Source: Gammaproteobacteria bacterium
GTDB taxonomy: Bacteria > Pseudomonadota > Gammaproteobacteria > UBA6186 > Azoamicaceae
Assembly: GCA_013288135.1 (NCBI GenBank)
Contig: JABDCL010000004.1
Location: forward strand, 19,949 to 83,948
Reading direction: 5' to 3'
DNA: 64,000 nt
How positions within the stretch are numbered: the first letter of the stretch is position 1; each line of letters begins with the position of its first letter. Shown in pieces: positions 37,573 through 56,567 of the stretch. The notes beneath the pieces were generated by a model. That model saw only the letters and a program-made list of their open reading frames with translations, did no database searches and was not told the origin of the DNA. The position numbers were made by a program, and so were the translations under genes.

Positions 37573-37707
37573 AAGGACTTGACCCCCATTCACCCGTCCC
37601 TTTGGTGACCTGTCATAATTATATTTTAGTTAATTATGGAACTATTATCAATTTGCTATCAATTTGGGTATCGGCCTAGATAGAAAAGGTTTTAGTTAAA
37701 ATCCGAA

Positions 37708-37724
37708 GGGTTAGGGGGGATTTT
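37708..37724. repeat. Solo arm of the poly-G palindromic element (GGGTTAGGGGGGATTTT)
   Basis: Same motif as an arm of the element at 55861..55940. It contains the stop codon and last codons (NQNPP*) of the ygfX-like gene. Confidence 0.6.
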
Positions 37725-38151
37725 GATTTAAGCGAAGCAGTAAAGCTCTGAATTCATGAGGGGTTAAGATATCTTTGGGTATAATCACGCTTATTTTGCG
37801 ATCTTTAAGACGTAATCTAAGGATAATAAGCCAAGCACTTTTAAAACTATCCCCTTGTAATTCCCCTAAAGCACTCAGACCATATCTAAAGTGACACCCA
37901 AATCGACCTTTAGAGTCTTGCCAAATTCTAATGACTGAACGAGAAGCTTTACGAAATACATGCGTTTTAAGTGTTTGAAAGTAACTAAAACCTAATAAGG
38001 CACCTCCCCCTATTTTTAAAATGAGAGGAATTGGCAGTGTCAAAAAAATCCCAATACCCCCCAAATAGCTGAAGGTAATTAAAAGAAACAGGATCCGTGA
38101 GTACCCCAATGCAAATTCTAGGGAGTGCCCAACATTCTTAAGCGAATACAT
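37711..38151 (-). CDS. YgfX (CptA)-like inner-membrane protein
   Basis: 146 aa with two N-terminal TM helices, directly downstream of and overlapping sdhE as in E. coli sdhE-ygfX. The call rests mainly on synteny. Confidence 0.45.
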   Translation of the reverse strand: MYSLKNVGHSLEFALGYSRILFLLITFSYLGGIGIFLTLPIPLILKIGGGALLGFSYFQTLKTHVFRKASRSVIRIWQDSKGRFGCHFRYGLSALGELQGDSFKSAWLIILRLRLKDRKISVIIPKDILTPHEFRALLLRLNQNPP

Positions 38152-43339: not shown

Positions 43340-43419
43340 GGGGCCGGCCTCTGTGCCGGCCCGCGTAGGGGCCGGCCTCTGTGCCGGCCCACTGTAGGGG
43401 CCGGTCTCTGTGCCGGCCC
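43340..43419 (-). repeat. Three tandem GC-rich REP hairpins (28-bp period)
   Basis: (TGTA)GGGGCCGG(C/T)CTCTGTGCCGGCCC repeated three times. The last C is the first base of the TetR stop codon. Confidence 0.9.
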
Positions 43420-50766: not shown

Positions 50767-50840
50767 GGGTCGGCACAGGGACCGACCCCTACAATTTGAA
50801 TGTTCCTTCAGTTGGGTCGGCACGGAGACCGACCCCTACA
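50767..50840 (+). repeat. Two REP-variant hairpins GGGTCGGCAC(A/G)G(G/A)GACCGACCCCTACA (47-bp period)
   Basis: The stem GGGTCGG/CCGACCC differs from GGGCCGG/CCGGCCC by paired compensatory changes. Confidence 0.85.
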
Positions 50841-50843
50841 ATG

Positions 50844-50885
50844 AAAAAGGGGGGTTAGGGGGCATTTGGGGATTTGCGGGGATTT
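50844..50885. repeat. Poly-G element arm AAAAAGGGGGGTTAGGGGGCATTTGGGGATTTGCGGGGATTTT
   Basis: Shares AAAAGGGGGGTTAGGGGG.ATTT with the reverse complement of the fadJ insertion. It abuts the thiolase stop codon. Confidence 0.6.
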
Positions 50886-52091: not shown

Positions 52092-54476
52092 TCAATTCTT
52101 CAATGGCTTATTATGTTGAAGCATATAAGCAATGCGCTCTTGCGTTTTTTTAGTATTCAACAATTCTAAAAAGGCTTGTTGCTCTAATTCTAATAACCAC
52201 TCTTCCGACACTTCTATGCCTCCTTCGACTTCTCCCCCACACATGACACGTGCAAGCAAAGAACCTATTAAATAATCGTGATCAGAAACAAATCCCCCTT
52301 CTCGCATATTGACTAATTCTACTTGAATGGTTGCAAGTCCTGGTTTTCCAGCAACAGTAATATTACCTTTAAGCGGCGGGTGATAATTTGATTCCGCAAG
52401 GGCCAGTGCTTGTTTTTTTGCGACAAATAAAACCTCATAAGGATTTGTAATAATAATGTCCCCTTCTTGCAAAAATCCTAATTGTTTCGCCGCTAATGCA
52501 CTCTTTGCCACTTCTGCTCTTGCAATGGTTCTAAAATATTTTTGCAAATGAGAAAATGGATCCCCGCCGTTTACATTTTGGGAGGCACGAGAGGCCCGAA
52601 GAGCCATTTCCTTACTTCCCGCACCCGCTGGGATTAAACCCACACCCATTTCCACTAAACCAGGATAAGATTCTAATGCTGCGATTGTCTTTGTACAATG
52701 CATCATAAGCTCACAGGCGCCCCCTAATACTAAACCTTGTATCGCCATTAATGTCGGAACTCGTGCATAACGTAAAGCAAGTGCCGTTTTTTGAAATTTT
52801 ACAACTACTTTTTCTAATAATTCTATTCTTCCTGCTGATAACGCAGTTAAAACATCTTTTAAATTTGCTCCGTAACTGAAATCAGTTCCGTGTCTTTGCC
52901 ATAAAATCAATGCTTTATAATCGGATTCAGCAACCCATATTGCTTCTAATAACCCATCCAATACAGCATCTGATATTGTGTTTTTCTTACTTTTAAAACT
53001 TAAGATTGCGAGTTCATCTCCTGTTGTCCAAAGACGAACAGCATCTGTTTCAAAAATTGTTTTACCTTCATCAAAAATTTCGCCCAATAAGGGATCAGGA
53101 AAAATTTGGCGTTTATACACCGGCAAAGAAGATCTGCTAATATAAGTTTGTTTCGAAGGGGAATAACAAGTTCCTTTTCCATAAGGACCCTCTTCTTTTA
53201 AAATTGTACTCCATTCCGGTAAGGGCTCCGAACTTAAGGTTTTGTTAGCACGAATATCCTCTTCTATCCAAGCCATCACCGTCTTCCAACCAATGTTCTG
53301 CCATAATTCAAAGGGACCTTGCTGCCAACCGAAACCCCAACGAATGGCCAAATCTATATCCCGCGGAGAATCCGCAATGGCCGTTAAATGATAAGCACAA
53401 TAGTGAAATAAATCCCGATAACTTGCCCACAAAAATTTAGCTTCGGGTATTGTACTCGTTCTTAATTTTGAAAACTTTTCATAAACCGTAGGTATTTTTA
53501 AAATTTCTAATATTTCAGGATCCACTTTTTGTTGTGCAGTTCTATAACACCGTTCTCGAATATCAAATACTTGGATCCCTTCAGCATCTTTTTTATAAAT
53601 ACCCGATCGGGTTTTTTGTCCTAATGCACCCTTATTAATTAAAGTAGAAAACCAGGCAGGAATATGAAATAAAGAATGCCAAGGATCATTCGGCAACCAT
53701 TTTTCCATAGTATTGACTACTTGTGCAAAAGTATCTAAACCAACAATGTCTAATGTTCTAAACGTTGCACTCCTGGGTCGACCCATAATAGGGCCTGTTA
53801 TTTGATCTACCAAATCAAAAGATAAATCCAGATCCATCGCATGATGTAAACTACACAAAAAAGAAAAAACACCTACTCGATTCCCAATAAAATTGGGCGT
53901 ATCTTTTGCATAGATAACCCCTTTGCCCAACTCCATCACTAAAAATGATTCCAACTGTTCTAATAAAAGTTTATCTGTTTCTTTATGAGGGATAAGTTCT
54001 ACTAAAGTCATATAACGGGGTGGGTTAAAAAAATGAACTCCACAAAAACGTGAACGGATAGAAGTCGGTAAACTTAAAGCTAATTTATTAATACTCAAAC
54101 CAGAAGTATTACTGACAAGCACCGACTGTGGATTTAAATACGGTGTAATTTTACGATACAAATCTTGTTTCCAATCTAATCGTTCTGAGATAGCTTCTAT
54201 TACTAAATCACACTCTCTCAATAAAGCTAAATCGTGACCGTAGTTTGCAACTTCTATAAGCTGAAATAAAGAATCGAGTGCTAAGGGGGAAGGATGTAAC
54301 TCTTTCAAAGATTTTAACGATTGCTTGACTAAAGCATTTTGATCATTCCCCTCTGTGGGTAGATCAAATAAAATAGGGGTAATTCCAACATTGACAAAAT
54401 GTGTTGCAATTTGTGCACCCATAACACCTGCACCAAGAACTGCTACCTTACGGATAAACAAACGATTATGCAACAT
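52092..54476 (-). CDS. 3-hydroxyacyl-CoA dehydrogenase / enoyl-CoA hydratase-family fusion (~800-aa type)
   Basis: N-terminal NAD-binding VAVLGAGVMGAQIA with the HAD domain, and a C-terminal crotonase-like region. Confidence 0.8.
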   Translation of the reverse strand: MLHNRLFIRKVAVLGAGVMGAQIATHFVNVGITPILFDLPTEGNDQNALVKQSLKSLKELHPSPLALDSLFQLIEVANYGHDLALLRECDLVIEAISERLDWKQDLYRKITPYLNPQSVLVSNTSGLSINKLALSLPTSIRSRFCGVHFFNPPRYMTLVELIPHKETDKLLLEQLESFLVMELGKGVIYAKDTPNFIGNRVGVFSFLCSLHHAMDLDLSFDLVDQITGPIMGRPRSATFRTLDIVGLDTFAQVVNTMEKWLPNDPWHSLFHIPAWFSTLINKGALGQKTRSGIYKKDAEGIQVFDIRERCYRTAQQKVDPEILEILKIPTVYEKFSKLRTSTIPEAKFLWASYRDLFHYCAYHLTAIADSPRDIDLAIRWGFGWQQGPFELWQNIGWKTVMAWIEEDIRANKTLSSEPLPEWSTILKEEGPYGKGTCYSPSKQTYISRSSLPVYKRQIFPDPLLGEIFDEGKTIFETDAVRLWTTGDELAILSFKSKKNTISDAVLDGLLEAIWVAESDYKALILWQRHGTDFSYGANLKDVLTALSAGRIELLEKVVVKFQKTALALRYARVPTLMAIQGLVLGGACELMMHCTKTIAALESYPGLVEMGVGLIPAGAGSKEMALRASRASQNVNGGDPFSHLQKYFRTIARAEVAKSALAAKQLGFLQEGDIIITNPYEVLFVAKKQALALAESNYHPPLKGNITVAGKPGLATIQVELVNMREGGFVSDHDYLIGSLLARVMCGGEVEGGIEVSEEWLLELEQQAFLELLNTKKTQERIAYMLQHNKPLKN

Positions 54477-56547
54477 CTAATTCACTCCAACCTCTATCCG
54501 CCAAAAATTGATCGCCATACCGCTCTGCTAATACATTTAAACGATGCATTAAATATGGTTTTCCTTCTTCTGCAATATAATGCAAAGGTCCTCCTCGAAA
54601 AGGAGGAAATCCTGCACCAAAGATCATCCCTGCATCCAGCAAATTCGCATCTGCTACAATCCCTTCTCGTAAACAGGCTAATGCCTCATTAAACATTCGA
54701 AACATTAATCTATCTGTAATATCTTCTGGGATCTGATAATTAATATCCAGTTTTTCTTTAACAGGTTTACCCTTTTTATATTCATAAAATCCTCGGCCAG
54801 TCTTTTTGCCTAAATGCCCCTTGGCAACCAACTCTCGTATTTGATTAGGTACTTGTCCTCCAAAGTGGTGACTTAAAGATTCTCCTGCTAATAAACAAAC
54901 ATCTAATCCTACCATATCCGCCAGTTCGATAGGGCCCATAGGCATGCCAAACTCAATGGCTGCACGATCAATCACTGTTTTTGAAAGTCCTTCGCTTAAC
55001 AAGCGTACACCTTCCATTAAATAAGGCATTAATAGTCGATTAATTAAAAAACCAGGCGCACTTCGGACAGGTAAAGGCAGCTTGTCAATACAACGAACAA
55101 AAGCAATTGCACACTGAGTTACCAGAGGATCTGTTTTATTATCTGAAATTACTTCTACCAAAGACATTTTGGCAACCGGATTAAAAAAGTGGATCCCCAC
55201 TAGTCGTTCTCCAGACTGTAAAGTTTCTGCTATTTCTTCTAAAGGAATTGTCGATGTATTGCTTGCCAAAATTGCCTCTGGCTTTGCCAATTTTTCTATA
55301 TTCTTAAACAAAGCTTGCTTGGCTTCTTTGTTTTCAATGATAGCTTCAATAATAATGTCACTCTTAGAAATACCAAGTCCTTCAACATCTGGCATTAATC
55401 TATCCATCGCTGCTTTAACTCTATAAGGTTCTTTGAGTTGTTTTGTGAATAGTTCCTTGGCACGTTTTAAAGATGCAGCAATTGCCTTTAAATTAGTGTC
55501 TTGTAAAGTTACTTTAAACCCTTTAAGCGCGCACCAAGCAGCAATATCACCGCCCATAACACCTGCCCCGACAACATGTATGTGTCTGGGTTTAAATAGG
55601 CTTTCCCGACTTAGATTTTTTAATGTTTCTTGTAAATGAAAGACTCGAAGCAAATTTTTTGCTGTGTCTGAGACCATTAATTGACTGATAGATTTTATTT
55701 CTGACTCAAAAGCGGATTGTTTTGAAATACCATGTTCTACCCAATTATCAACAATAGCAAAGGGTGCTGGATAATGCGCTGGATTCACTTTTGCCCTTAA
55801 TTTACGATACAGAAATTTTCCGATTAAAGGGCGGACAAATTCAAGATTTAAGATATGTTCCCCCACTTTTATAAAGGGGGGGCTAGGGGGGGATTTCCGA
55901 TTTAAAAAATCCCCCCTAACCCCCCTTTTCCAAAGTGGGGAATTTAAATAATACTTCACAGCAGCCATATACTGTCGCTTCGGCACCACAACATCCACTA
56001 ACCCCATTTTACCTGCCTCTTTAGCAGAAATGGATCGCCCCGATAACATTAAATCCATCGCCGAGAATATCCCAATTAATCGAGGCAGTCGTACGGTTCC
56101 CCCCCAACCTGGATGAATACCTAACAACACTTCAGGTGTCCCAAAACGCGTTTTTGGATCGTCGATCGCAATCCGATAACGACATGCCAAAGCAAGTTCT
56201 AAGCCTCCTCCCAAACAAAATCCTTGGATTAAAGCAAGCGTTGGAAAAGAAACTTTTTCTAACTCCTCAAAAATTTTTTGACCTTGCTCAATTAAACTCG
56301 TCGCTTCCTCTGCAGACTTTACATTCTCAAATTGATGAATATCAGCCCCAGCTATAAATCCATTTTCTTTGCCAGATTGTATAACCAACCCAAGTGGTGG
56401 TTTTGGGAGTGCTTCTAACATTTGTAAAAAAGAATGTAATTCTTCTAATACCTCTGCATTGATGGTATTCACCGAGGAAGACTGTCTATTAAAAGTTAAC
56501 CAAAAAATGTTATCAGCATCTTTTTCATATTGCCAATGACGATACAT
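54466..56547 (-). CDS. fadJ: Fatty-acid oxidation complex alpha subunit (enoyl-CoA hydratase + 3-hydroxyacyl-CoA dehydrogenase), carrying an in-frame palindromic insertion
   Basis: N-terminal crotonase fold (GFIAGADI, GGGLELALAC), then HVVGAGVMGGDIA HAD domain. Lies downstream of a FadI-like thiolase, as in fadIJ. Confidence 0.8.
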   Translation of the reverse strand: MYRHWQYEKDADNIFWLTFNRQSSSVNTINAEVLEELHSFLQMLEALPKPPLGLVIQSGKENGFIAGADIHQFENVKSAEEATSLIEQGQKIFEELEKVSFPTLALIQGFCLGGGLELALACRYRIAIDDPKTRFGTPEVLLGIHPGWGGTVRLPRLIGIFSAMDLMLSGRSISAKEAGKMGLVDVVVPKRQYMAAVKYYLNSPLWKRGVRGDFLNRKSPPSPPFIKVGEHILNLEFVRPLIGKFLYRKLRAKVNPAHYPAPFAIVDNWVEHGISKQSAFESEIKSISQLMVSDTAKNLLRVFHLQETLKNLSRESLFKPRHIHVVGAGVMGGDIAAWCALKGFKVTLQDTNLKAIAASLKRAKELFTKQLKEPYRVKAAMDRLMPDVEGLGISKSDIIIEAIIENKEAKQALFKNIEKLAKPEAILASNTSTIPLEEIAETLQSGERLVGIHFFNPVAKMSLVEVISDNKTDPLVTQCAIAFVRCIDKLPLPVRSAPGFLINRLLMPYLMEGVRLLSEGLSKTVIDRAAIEFGMPMGPIELADMVGLDVCLLAGESLSHHFGGQVPNQIRELVAKGHLGKKTGRGFYEYKKGKPVKEKLDINYQIPEDITDRLMFRMFNEALACLREGIVADANLLDAGMIFGAGFPPFRGGPLHYIAEEGKPYLMHRLNVLAERYGDQFLADRGWSELDVA
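55861..55940. mobile_element. 80-bp poly-G palindromic element inserted in frame in fadJ
   Basis: CCCCACTTTTATAAAGGGGGGGCTAGGGGGGGATTT...AAATCCCCCCTAACCCCCCTTTTCCAAAGTGGGG, translated as PLWKRGVRGDFLNRKSPPSPPFIKVG. Confidence 0.8.
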
Positions 56548-56567
56548 AGATTCTCCTTGCGGGGGTT

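Follow-up and report, generated by a model that had tools for sequence, protein, structure and literature searches.

We consider it probable that the palindromic insert in the FadJ-like gene of this gammaproteobacterium-like contig is an inverted doublet of two class II intrastrand-triplex units that encloses no ORF, representing a sequence variant (C6T3 / A3G6 / G6AT3) of the BoxC/PIT/TM_ECO repeats, with DUF559 nucleases as the likeliest driver. A first-pass annotation had left open whether the family was described; the class is already described, as intergenic repeats under the names BoxC, PIT and TM_ECO, but the coding insertions and the fadJ sequence variant are beyond that account (PMC4666352).

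The imperfect palindrome of 80 bp originally noted at 55861-55940 of the window (the whole 64-kb stretch of DNA analysed here, with a G+C content of 38%) is real: a repeat search recovers arms of 30 nt at 55861-55890 and 55911-55940 that are 77% complementary, and once the conserved TT/AA ends are counted the full element is an 85-nt imperfect palindrome (Table 1). The predicted RNA fold of the region has an energy of -56.9 kcal/mol, against -36.3 +/- 3.9 for shuffled sequences (z = -5.3; none of 200 shuffles folded as stably), and the core GGGGGGNTAGGGGGG occurs four times in the window where 0.2 occurrences are expected. The contrast between the G/C runs and the surrounding gene is likewise borne out, with 51% G+C in the element and 39% in its host gene. 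The element consists of two inverted 36-nt units, each with the order pyrimidine run, 3-nt loop, purine run, YTA, mirror purine run and ATTT, and the spacer between them is the shortest of the 29 doublets found, the others ranging from 10 to 46 nt. A profile search with the 36-nt unit finds in the window only this one full doublet and two fragments, of which one is a partial unit adjoining a GTAG-type REP copy at 50815-50839, and the other is probably a decayed unit. Classical GTAG-headed REPs are present in six copies in the window, and belong to a sequence family distinct from the triplex units. The identical fadJ element sequence is found on two assemblies, Logan SRR8431266 and JGI 3300020809, whose read sets are possibly not independent. 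An Rfam scan of the element region returned no family, only sub-threshold miRNA-like hairpin matches, and literature searches with the element's DNA strings and derived peptides gave nothing relevant.

Table 1. Positions in the window of the host gene, the triplex-unit doublet with its parts, and the two unit fragments.
Feature	Position	Strand	Sequence	Remarks
Host gene, FadJ/FadB-like multifunctional alpha subunit	54466..56547	-		693 aa; domains ECH_1, 3HCDH_N, 3HCDH
Complete element, inverted doublet of two putative intrastrand-triplex units	55858..55942			85 nt, ~28 codons; minus-strand translation corresponds to FadJ-like residues 202/203-230
Unit L (type A)	55858..55896	+	TT CCCCCAC TTT tat AAA GGGGGGG cta GGGGGGG ATTT	nhmmer E = 9e-6
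Spacer X	55897..55906		ccgatttaaa	between Unit L and Unit R
Unit R (type A)	55907..55942	-	TT CCCCAC TTT gga AAA GGGGGG tta GGGGGG ATTT	nhmmer E = 8e-11, full length 1-36
Partial unit	50842..50870	+	GAAAAAGGGGGGTTAGGGGGCATTT	no pyrimidine arm; intergenic, downstream of thiolase gene
Weak fragment	37705..37725	+	GAAGGGTTAGGGGGGATTTTG	3' end of minus-strand ORF 37711-38151; profile match E = 1.4

The element lies within the open minus-strand frame of the FadJ-like protein and is read through without a stop, as first proposed; two of its six frames are open, and it is translated as ..NSPLWKRGVRGDFLNRKSPPSPPFIKVGEH.., residues 202-230. Its annotated placement before the YPAP motif also stands, the insert occupying the linker between the crotonase and 3-hydroxyacyl-CoA dehydrogenase domains, with YPAP 29 residues further on. 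A lineage-specific insert of about 26 aa had been suggested; lineage specificity is upheld, the element-derived peptides being present in none of the 119 other homologues examined, but the length is not, as the protein is longer by a net 16 aa (48 nt). This value derives from the spacing of two conserved anchors. Both could be located in 73 proteins (the query and 72 homologues); 65 of these have a spacing of 57 aa, and the window FadJ has one of 73 aa. Given a net gain of 16 aa and about 28 element codons, these codons occupy the place of about 12 expected ancestral linker codons, and about 36 nt of the former fadJ linker would have been lost during or after insertion. The closest homologue is 61% identical, the best matches being labelled Legionellales or Gammaproteobacteria, and with no insert-free allele or close relative available for comparison the insertion borders, this loss and the age of the event can only be inferred. 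A MAG from a similarly numbered JGI sample proved to be no relative of the window organism, as its G+C content is 45% against 38% and it shows no similarity. Human TFP-alpha is uninformative as an alignment reference for the insert because it has a long linker of its own, and a megablast search of the host gene against plasmids gave no match. In an AF2 model of the FadJ-like protein (mean pLDDT 85.7) residues 206-225 are the only segment with a pLDDT below 50, and the structure model thus predicts the element-encoded peptide to be a disordered loop.

Units are also found inside other genes. In a WaaC-like GT9 protein a unit lies in frame and adds 28 aa in the interdomain linker (reference E. 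coli WaaC 2GT1), and in an MdtB-like RND pump an in-frame unit adds about 12 aa (reference 9LYQ); in an ORF with NACHT and FGE-sulfatase domains a unit falls within the FGE-sulfatase domain as judged from the span of the Pfam match. The comparison originally drawn with the RPEs of Rickettsia is apt as to behaviour, the FadJ, WaaC-like and MdtB-like inserts lying in frame at permissive sites, in the fadJ case as a palindromic insert in a housekeeping enzyme, but the resemblance is one of behaviour only and nothing ties the element to the RPE family, the fadJ element being built of 36-nt modules of the BoxC/PIT/TM_ECO type. RPEs are reportedly palindromic repeats of about 100-150 bp that lie in frame in Rickettsia housekeeping genes, and both they and the fadJ units are repeated palindromic DNA that adds peptide at positions compatible with the fold. 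To our knowledge, RPEs are restricted to Rickettsia, have no poly-G/poly-C triplex grammar and have no associated nuclease gene; the fadJ units are set apart by description in their triplex grammar, their occurrence under record titles of many phyla and their association with DUF559.

BoxC, PIT elements and TM_ECO are intrastrand-triplex motifs (Bergler 1992; Hoyne and Maher 2000; Holder et al. 2015, PMC4666352). In E. coli MG1655 the TM_ECO copies are always intergenic and their function is unknown; they have the consensus CCCTCNCCC N3-6 GGGNGAGGG N3 GGGNGAGGG, and all five E. coli doublets combine types A and B (PMC4666352). Triplex formation has been demonstrated in vitro, and for TM_ECO only. 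Holder et al. observed no stable triplex in double-stranded DNA and none by in vivo DMS footprinting, and they found no association of TM_ECO with transposons, phages or plasmids in E. coli (PMC4666352). Both fadJ units show the class II order on one strand, CCCC(C)ACTTT / AAAGGGGGG(G) / GGGGGG(G)ATT, and their stems fall within the ITxF criteria, which call for 6-15 triplets (C.G*G, T.A*A, T.A*T), no more than one mismatch if there are more than seven, and loops of 1-6 nt (PMC4666352); Unit L has 10 potential triplets and Unit R has 9, each with one A.G*G mismatch and loops of 3 + 3 nt. They share with TM_ECO the 36-nt length, the succession of pyrimidine run, loop (3-6 nt), purine run, 3-nt loop and second purine run, the richness in G/C runs, the occurrence as singlets and as inverted doublets of two unit types, and a high conservation across many bacteria; as in TM_ECO type A the second loop is TTA, and a single mismatched triplet is allowed there as 'A mm'. 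The stem sequence is different, CCCCCCTTT/AAAGGGGGG/GGGGGGATT rather than CCCTCNCCC/GGGNGAGGG/GGGNGAGGG, so the fadJ units do not match the TM_ECO consensus and are a separate sequence variant of the class, not copies of TM_ECO. The window doublet moreover joins A to A across a 10-nt spacer and is coding and translated, whereas the TM_ECO doublets are A + B and intergenic in MG1655.

The consensus of the unit family, TTCCCCCCTTTnnnAAAGGGGGGYTAGGGGGGATTT, was derived from 129 copies in more than 119 GTDB loci. Among the matches listed, the family occurs under record titles of many bacterial phyla, these labels being MAG titles and some of the bins possibly contaminated. Solo 36-nt units are common, units are mostly intergenic in other genomes, and most of the doublets combine a type B with a type A unit. 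The variant analysis covered 215 informative units from 133 loci: in 185 the second purine run mirrors the first, and in 153 of these the pyrimidine run is also complementary to the first purine run. The mirror rule holds across six variant classes in which the position of the A/T is shifted, as expected at the family level for a third strand; reading the two purine runs as direct repeats fits just 34 of the 215 units in the variant analysis, and pairing within a long doublet hairpin was ruled out as the source of the rule by reasoning on the unit grammar. The G runs of the fadJ units are homopurine, and both units are therefore uninformative on the mirror rule when taken alone. At many loci a change in one run is matched in the other two in the manner of Y.R*R base triples, and from this three-way covariation we argue that selection acts on the triplex geometry itself.

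In many lineages a DUF559 gene exactly fills the space between two units, one of type B and one of type A, with the polarity seen in the doublets that lack an ORF; ORFs enclosed by units match PF04480 with E = 1e-34 and 6e-30, and these cassettes of other genomes have a whole DUF559 ORF where the fadJ doublet has Spacer X. Of 71 metagenomic DUF559 loci, 64 carry a unit at one end of the gene at least, and 35 carry one at each end. Units reach a density of 7.6 per kb at DUF559 gene boundaries, compared with 0.97 in the remaining flanks and 0.2 in GTDB loci. DUF559 is the sole small ORF family that recurs near units in the GTDB unit loci listed; its presence in only 4 of the 119 counts against the link. 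A transposase was sought between long convergent unit pairs; DUF559 alone recurred there, the rest being unrelated host genes or spurious ORFs of GC-rich DNA. Of six distant DUF559 genes that we also inspected, those of Picosynechococcus and Deinococcus have their own Y/R/mirror-R motifs on both sides, that of Azospirillum is preceded by a full motif and followed by a hairpin, that of Neisseria has a degenerate motif upstream only, and a Synechocystis plasmid copy has no motif. The E. coli DUF559 gene, ycjD, has a TM_ECO copy (BoxC no. 9) 168 nt downstream, with a possible degenerate TM_ECO copy across its stop codon. Units and DUF559 genes, E. coli ycjD included, are in tight, reciprocal genomic association. 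There are 19-30 triplex-motif copies in the listed E. coli strains that we take to be of phylogroup A, B1 or C, with ycjD status presumed likewise, 1-2 copies in those that we take to be of phylogroup B2, and 6-15 in O157:H7, 042, UMN026 and IAI39, whose phylogroup and ycjD status we in part presume. According to statements made at the level of phylogroups, ycjD is carried by E. coli phylogroups A, B1 and C (PMC12817139).

The DUF559 proteins belong to a nuclease fold. The DUF559 profile detects 3HRL (E = 2.5e-25) and the homing endonuclease I-Bth0305I (3R3P, E = 0.003) in the PDB, to which characterised structures the cassette proteins are thus related, and D52, E63, D65 and H69 are invariant in the alignment. 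In I-Bth0305I the DUF559 profile recognizes the catalytic domain, and the enzyme cuts its pseudo-palindromic target as a dimer (PMC3239194); it is, however, intron-encoded and has extra NUMOD DNA-binding domains, whereas the DUF559 proteins here consist of the 119-aa domain and nothing else, and are encoded on their own between units. In Caulobacter a DUF559 protein triggers the SOS response (PMC12907096). Our literature searches on DUF559, Vsr-like + REP, ycjD, and triplex + endonuclease found no link between repeat and nuclease, and the account of TM_ECO does not mention a DUF559 link, the word 'endonuclease' being absent from it (PMC4666352).

The fadJ element is best read as selfish DNA without an ORF, tolerated in a disordered loop. 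It would act as DNA, by folding into a hairpin, cruciform or triplex while the DNA is transiently single-stranded, and not through its peptide or mRNA; we note that purine-motif triplexes do not form in RNA (PMC4666352). The element may have arrived by copying from another copy in the genome, and presumably persists because about 28 stop-free codons in a surface loop impose a low cost. The genomic association suggests that DUF559 mobilises the units: the nuclease, of the Vsr-like PD-(D/E)XK type, would nick or cleave the unit in its folded or palindromic form, with repair then copying the element, much as in homing or in REPIN/RAYT systems. The 64-kb window has no DUF559 gene and only one full doublet and two fragments, and a local driver is therefore unsupported. 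Alternatively, DUF559 cassettes could land in unstable triplex-motif sites, the adjacency then arising without mobilisation by the nuclease. More tentatively, and with somewhat more doubt than confidence, we suggest that BoxC/PIT/triplex repeats could belong to a pan-bacterial selfish system, serving it as non-autonomous partners or as homing sites; the sole protein of that system would be a 119-aa DUF559 nuclease recognising hairpin-plus-third-strand DNA, and the FadJ, WaaC-like and MdtB-like inserts would be its footprints.

Two familiar kinds of mobile element resemble the doublets in organisation. A MITE, that is a deletion derivative of a DDE-transposase IS moved in trans by cut-and-paste or copy-paste, would have the 36-nt units as its terminal inverted repeats, and it would account for a variable core enclosed by inverted terminal units, for long versions with an ORF and short ones without, and for copies at unrelated sites, genes included. 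We regard it as improbable, as target-site duplications are absent at all 29 doublets listed, no transposase family recurs in the 119 GTDB unit loci listed that could point to a parent IS, and the sole enclosed ORF is a 119-aa Vsr-like nuclease domain and not a DDE enzyme; 36-nt solo units are moreover common, and an internal covariation with mirror symmetry is foreign to terminal inverted repeats. An origin as a REP/REPIN-type element, on whose single-stranded hairpins a RAYT (an IS200/IS605-like Y1 HUH transposase) acts, seems to us just as improbable. REP/REPIN-RAYT systems are said to combine non-autonomous palindromic units with a few copies of a small gene flanked by such units, and the triplex units are alike in their many short palindromic units and doublets, in a small gene flanked by the same units and in the lack of target duplication; their singlets, inverted doublets and arrays of alternating orientation recall REPINs and BIMEs, the hairpin-forming units contain a YTAG tetranucleotide, and the source genome does possess classical GTAG-headed REPs. 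Those REPs are, however, another sequence family, the tetranucleotide lies between the two purine runs and not at the 5′ foot of the hairpin, and the unit has a third, mirror-symmetric strand, which distinguishes it from REP/REPIN. No RAYT-like ORF recurs near units in the 119 loci listed, and the unit-flanked gene is DUF559, a Vsr-like PD-(D/E)XK nuclease, where REPIN-RAYT systems have an HUH Y1 transposase.

It is also unlikely that the insert is kept for a role in mRNA or protein, such as a hairpin that pauses ribosomes at the domain boundary and so affects folding or expression, or a loop with a function in the enzyme complex. The stability of the predicted mRNA hairpin, the still open frame and the placement of both the FadJ and WaaC-like inserts exactly in interdomain linkers are in keeping with such a role, but linkers also tolerate insertions, the peptide is disordered by prediction, units in other genomes are mostly intergenic, PIT elements acted neither as promoters nor as terminators in earlier studies (cited in PMC4666352), and the covariation obeys a DNA triplex rule and not codons. 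Least credible of all is an artefact or local accident, either an assembly chimera or a palindrome made on the spot by template switching and belonging to no family; the contig is metagenome-derived and has a single full copy in 64 kb, but the same sequence with an intact frame is present on both assemblies, and each half of the element matches a 36-nt profile built from other organisms at the E values given in Table 1. We favor the ORF-less triplex-unit doublet.

BoxC/PIT/TM repeats abound in hundreds of bacterial genomes, where they are strongly conserved, and have been linked to genome instability, yet the literature reports no function, mobility mechanism or associated protein for them, and BoxC elements have been orphan repeats since 1992. 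The fadJ case shows that triplex repeats can enter genes of an essential pathway and stay there as translated loops, and are thus a source of variation in protein length, as RPEs are in Rickettsia. The covariation together with the DUF559 association makes the old BoxC question testable, and E. coli ycjD, together with BoxC no. 9, would offer a tractable model should the reading as a pan-bacterial selfish system be true. Were the nuclease to act on triplex structures, these repeats would represent a novel type of mobile or self-maintaining element, and DUF559, a large domain family of unknown function, would gain a role.

An in-frame palindrome had been noted in the first-pass annotation within a gene for a FadJ/FadB-like protein, and both parts of this description are borne out: the repeat search finds two 30-nt arms (55861-55890 and 55911-55940) that are 77% complementary, and a minus-strand open reading frame (54466..56547, 693 aa) runs through the element, which is read as NSPLWKRGVRGDFLNRKSPPSPPFIKVGE at residues 202-230. 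Only two of the six frames are open across it. The G+C content of the element is 51%, versus 39% for the gene; its core, GGGGGGNTAGGGGGG, occurs four times in the window where 0.2 copies are expected, and the region folds as RNA at -56.9 kcal/mol, against -36.3 +/- 3.9 in shuffled sequences (z = -5.3). By this predicted fold the fadJ mRNA would carry a very stable hairpin, which could affect fadJ translation. The identical sequence is present in the Logan SRR8431266 and JGI 3300020809 assemblies, although these two are possibly not independent. The gene lies in a beta-oxidation cluster (52092-60335) in which two FadB/FadJ-like genes of 794 and 693 aa stand in tandem, with an 11-nt overlap at 54466-54476, alongside two thiolases and a large acyl-CoA dehydrogenase.

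Coordinates of the fadJ element and other repeats in the window, and of ycjD and the adjacent triplex motif in E. coli
Feature	Position	Strand	Remarks
fadJ element	window 55858-55942		TTCCCCCACTTTTATAAAGGGGGGGCTAGGGGGGGATTT-ccgatttaaa-AAATCCCCCCTAACCCCCCTTTTCCAAAGTGGGGAA
GTAG REP-like copy	window 4456-4480	-
GTAG REP-like copy	window 4561-4585	+
GTAG REP-like copy	window 43394-43418	+
GTAG REP-like copy	window 50768-50792	-
GTAG REP-like copy	window 50815-50839	-
GTAG REP-like copy	window 56675-56699	-
GGGGGTCAAGTCTTTTTTCAGGA inverted pair	window 15427-15449/15468-15490
GGGGGTCAAGTCTTTTTTCAGGA inverted pair	window 27804-27826/27907-27929
GGGGGTCAAGTCTTTTTTCAGGA solo copy	window 56570-56592		23 nt upstream of fadJ start codon
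ycjD (b1289, DUF559)	E. coli K-12 NC_000913.3 1351407-1351760	minus
TM_ECO no. 9 (Holder Table 1; with ycjD in L244, 1351204-1351760)	E. coli K-12 NC_000913.3 1351239-1351204		168 nt downstream of ycjD

The host protein is a multifunctional alpha subunit of the FadJ/FadB type with ECH_1, 3HCDH_N and 3HCDH domains; among solved structures it is best matched by human TFP-alpha and by E. coli FadJ and FadB, and its nearest homologues are only 61% identical. Alignment of 19 sequences places 16 extra residues between the crotonase domain and the helix before the YPAP motif. Both anchors used for measuring the linker were found in 73 proteins of a 120-member hit list (the query and 119 homologues), and they are 57 aa apart in 65 of these 73 and 73 aa apart in the query. 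Taken with the alignment, these distances indicate that the element supplies about 28 codons in a stretch where about 12 would be expected for the linker; the host gene has gained 48 nt net, and we infer that either some 36 nt of ancestral linker were lost or the linker was already shorter in this lineage. The peptides derived from the element are absent from all 119 other homologues in the hit list, and in an AlphaFold2 model of the protein (mean pLDDT 85.7, pTM 0.77) the sole segment below a pLDDT of 50 is residues 206-225, within the insert, which is thus predicted to be a disordered loop. The homologue comparison identifies the insert as lineage-specific and not conserved across orthologues. 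The proposed linker position and lineage specificity therefore stand, and the proposed length of about 26 residues is replaced by 16 extra residues and about 28 element codons.

Searching the GTDB species representatives with GGGGGGNTAGGGGGGATTT yielded at least 119 loci, and alignment of these defines a 36-nt unit, TT-CCCCCC-TTT-nnn-AAA-GGGGGG-YTA-GGGGGG-ATTT, in which a pyrimidine run, a loop and a purine run are followed by a linker and a second purine run. Conservation extends 17 bases upstream of the searched pattern, over bases that the search did not demand, and among the loci listed there is none past the unit edges. By record title, these loci derive from the Beta-, Gamma- and Deltaproteobacteria, Myxococcota, Cyanobacteria, Nitrospirae, Acidobacteriota, Methylomirabilota, Omnitrophota, Verrucomicrobia and Deinococcota, and from a Gracilibacteria bin. 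The unit profile matches both halves of the fadJ element (E = 8e-11 and 9e-6) and only two fragments in the rest of the window. Units occur as singlets, convergent pairs, divergent pairs and arrays, and we found 29 complete doublets of two inverted units (79-116 nt), none with a target-site duplication; most join one unit of type B (C5/G5, with A-TTG-A as linker) to one of type A (C6/G6, with YTA as linker), and the fadJ doublet is A+A with the shortest spacer of the 29. Some units (L032 434-545, L020 and L176) have an additional G+C-rich hairpin, such as AAATCCCCCCGCCTCGCTTAGCGCTCGGCGGCCCCCTTTTTCAAAGGGGGC, in place of the 3-nt second loop, so the linker position tolerates insertions. The exact 19-nt motif is also present on 23 viral or proviral contigs in IMG/VR (L216-L238), one of them with four copies, and such contigs are possibly a route of spread between lineages.

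Two other repeat families are evident in the window. The GTAG-headed, REP-like palindrome GTAGGGGYCGGTCYCYGTGCCGRCC has six copies versus none expected, and its stem arms co-change (GTCGG..CCGAC versus GCCGG..CCGGC); of these copies, one is immediately upstream of the fadJ-like gene and another abuts a partial triplex unit at 50842. The repeat GGGGGTCAAGTCTTTTTTCAGGA has five copies, again with none expected.

The variation among units shows how the three runs are related. At many loci a C to T change in the pyrimidine run is accompanied by the complementary A in the first purine run, as expected for a hairpin, and in the second purine run of the same variants the A falls at the mirror position and not where a direct repeat would put it. 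The mirror rule holds for 185 of 215 informative units (133 loci), and hairpin and mirror rules hold jointly for 153; six variant classes with substitutions at different positions behave alike. A direct-repeat reading of the purine runs fits only 34 of the 215 units, most of them ambiguous. As judged from these alignments, the covariation is that of a purine-motif triplex (C.G*G, T.A*A, T.A*T) with the third strand antiparallel to the purine strand, and the conserved ATTT tail can be read as extending the putative triplex over the TTT/AAA part of the stem. The two fadJ units offer 9-10 allowed triplets, with one mismatch each.

Elements of this kind have been described as 'intrastrand triplex motifs' by Holder et al. 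2015 (PMC4666352), the E. coli member being TM_ECO, formerly BoxC (Bergler 1992) and the PIT element (Hoyne and Maher 2000). Its 36-nt class II consensus is CCCTCNCCC N3-6 GGGNGAGGG N3 GGGNGAGGG, with a second loop of TTA in type A and CCG in type B; MG1655 has 23 copies, 'always located intergenically', including five inverted doublets, every one of them A + B (PMC4666352). In vitro, the single strand folds into a stable triplex, which was seen neither in duplex DNA nor by in vivo DMS footprinting, and according to the authors RNA does not form purine-motif triplexes; the motif has neither promoter nor terminator activity, was found in no association with transposons, phages or plasmids, and is linked to local genome instability, its function being unknown (PMC4666352). 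The fadJ units share the architecture, length and TTA loop of TM_ECO but differ in stem sequence, and on sequence grounds we therefore assign the fadJ element as a new variant of the triplex-motif class, in a coding context that has not been reported. No Rfam family covers it.

Long open reading frames running through units elsewhere were compared with Pfam, and two of them also with solved structures. A GT9 heptosyltransferase (L079) reads a full doublet as SLPLCKRGIEGDSSTVEIPPSPPFAKGG, its residues 170-206 replacing 168-176 of E. coli WaaC (2GT1), a gain of 28 aa in the interdomain linker, while an MdtB-like RND pump (L121) contains one unit (EIPPTPPSAKEG) after a transmembrane segment, a gain of about 12 aa relative to MdtB 9LYQ. 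In a NACHT+FGE-sulfatase protein (L038) a unit lies inside the FGE-sulfatase match, as placed by the Pfam span alone; in two DNA-methylase-like frames (L048, L085) the unit-derived peptides fall outside the methylase match, and their coding status is thus less certain. In-frame persistence is thus a recurrent property of the family, not confined to fadJ, which supports the likeness to Rickettsia palindromic elements (RPEs) drawn in the first-pass annotation. Its observation is confirmed and its interpretation is partly right: the analogy holds for behaviour, and the element belongs to a known class of repeats, as a triplex-motif variant.

At four of the GTDB loci listed, from unrelated lineages (Sulfuricella, Proteobacteria SG_bin4, L089 and Calothrix), an ORF of 115-140 aa is placed precisely between a unit of type B and an inverted one of type A, its start codon a few bases past ATTT and its stop abutting or inside AAAT-CCCCCC-TAG. 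The two scanned against Pfam are DUF559 (PF04480; E = 1e-34 and 6e-30), and when all ORFs of the 119 loci listed were clustered without bias, DUF559 was the only small family to recur; no transposase recurs. There are 4253 DUF559 homologues, the best 120 of which (78-100% identity) are from Nitrosomonas, Thiobacillus, Sulfurimicrobium, Gallionellales, Methylobacter and Desulfurivibrionaceae. Three of four homologue loci fetched have the arrangement A(<) - B(>) - ATG..DUF559..stop - A(<) - B(>), and the fourth, from Thiobacillus, has units on the 3' side only.

The association is reciprocal. In 80 metagenomic DUF559 loci (49-78% identity), 71 of them with both flanks available, a unit is present at one or both gene ends in 64/71 and at both in 35/71, and unit density is 7.6 per kb at gene boundaries, 0.97 in the rest of the flanks and 0.2 in the GTDB loci. 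We inspected five records of more distant genes (37-46% identity): those of Picosynechococcus pAQ6 and Deinococcus are bracketed on both sides by lineage-specific motifs with the same grammar of pyrimidine, purine and mirror purine runs, in Azospirillum a full motif precedes the gene and a hairpin follows it, the Neisseria gene has just a degenerate motif, on its upstream side, and no motif is seen around the gene on the Synechocystis plasmid. At several loci the TAG or TAA of a unit is the stop codon of DUF559 or a neighbouring gene, and two database DUF559 ORFs (P0228, P0186) are called into the flanking units, with N-terminal MSSPFEKGGLRGI... and C-terminal ..GNPP. The cassettes are often inside or beside defence loci (L122-L131 on Gallionellales metagenome contigs, L066, L239 on Picosynechococcus pAQ6 and L240 on the Synechocystis plasmid), for example between a type I restriction R-subunit C-terminal gene and hsdS, or near PIN + DUF1156 or BREX pglX.

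The DUF559 profile matches PDB 3HRL ('endonuclease-like protein', E = 2.5e-25) and 3R3P (E = 0.003), the Vsr-like catalytic domain of the homing endonuclease I-Bth0305I, which acts as a dimer and cuts a pseudo-palindromic site (PMC3239194). D52, E63, D65 and H69 are invariant in DUF559 alignment A2, and YcjD-like proteins have long been assigned to the PD-(D/E)XK superfamily (PMC1189080). Caulobacter VsrA, a DUF559-domain protein, is responsible for an SOS response when a methylase is absent (PMC12907096), which demonstrates nuclease-type activity in vivo in one family member. In the literature searched, no paper ties DUF559 or YcjD-like proteins to triplex motifs.

The E. coli DUF559 gene, ycjD, is followed by TM_ECO no. 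9 and also by an apparent degenerate motif overlapping its stop codon and a duplicated fragment of its 3' end, an arrangement resembling what two or more DUF559 cassettes would leave behind. From its position downstream of fabI/envM, TM_ECO no. 9 is presumably the original BoxC of Bergler 1992. A rough estimate puts at ~0.0016 the probability that any of 18 triplex-motif loci should lie within 200 nt of a given gene. Of 5426 complete E. coli genomes, 3378 carry ycjD. We take the K-12 strains, BL21, HS, ATCC 8739, IAI1, 55989, O104:H4, E24377A, W and APEC O78 to belong to phylogroups A, B1 or C, CFT073, UTI89, UM146, IHE3034, S88, APEC O1, LF82, JJ1886 and others to B2, and the O157:H7 strains, 042, UMN026 and IAI39 to E, D and F. 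Motif counts in these three sets are 19-30, 1-2 and 6-15, respectively (PMC4666352 supplement), and in phylogroups A, B1 and C ycjD occupies the place of the eefRABCD efflux operon (PMC12817139). With ycjD status taken from these phylogroup-level statements, not strain by strain, motif count tracks the ycjD-bearing phylogroups, a suggestive correspondence that is confounded by phylogeny.

We infer that the element acts as DNA, not as peptide or RNA, and that doublets lacking an ORF may relate to DUF559 cassettes as MITEs do to insertion sequences, or REPINs to RAYTs. The nuclease would recognise the 21-bp palindrome or the folded three-stranded unit and nick or break the DNA, and repair of the break would copy the element; the instability reported around triplex motifs (Holder et al.) may account for the 36 nt of missing linker. 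Alternatively, DUF559 genes may do no more than home into triplex-motif sites that already existed, without mobilising the motifs. No nuclease gene is seen near the fadJ copy in the 64-kb window, and this doublet may be a fossil. Taken alone, the fadJ insertion is a modest curiosity; the work yields in DUF559 a testable candidate enzyme for the triplex-motif class, and the DUF559 link and the covariation open a 30-year-old orphan repeat to experiment.
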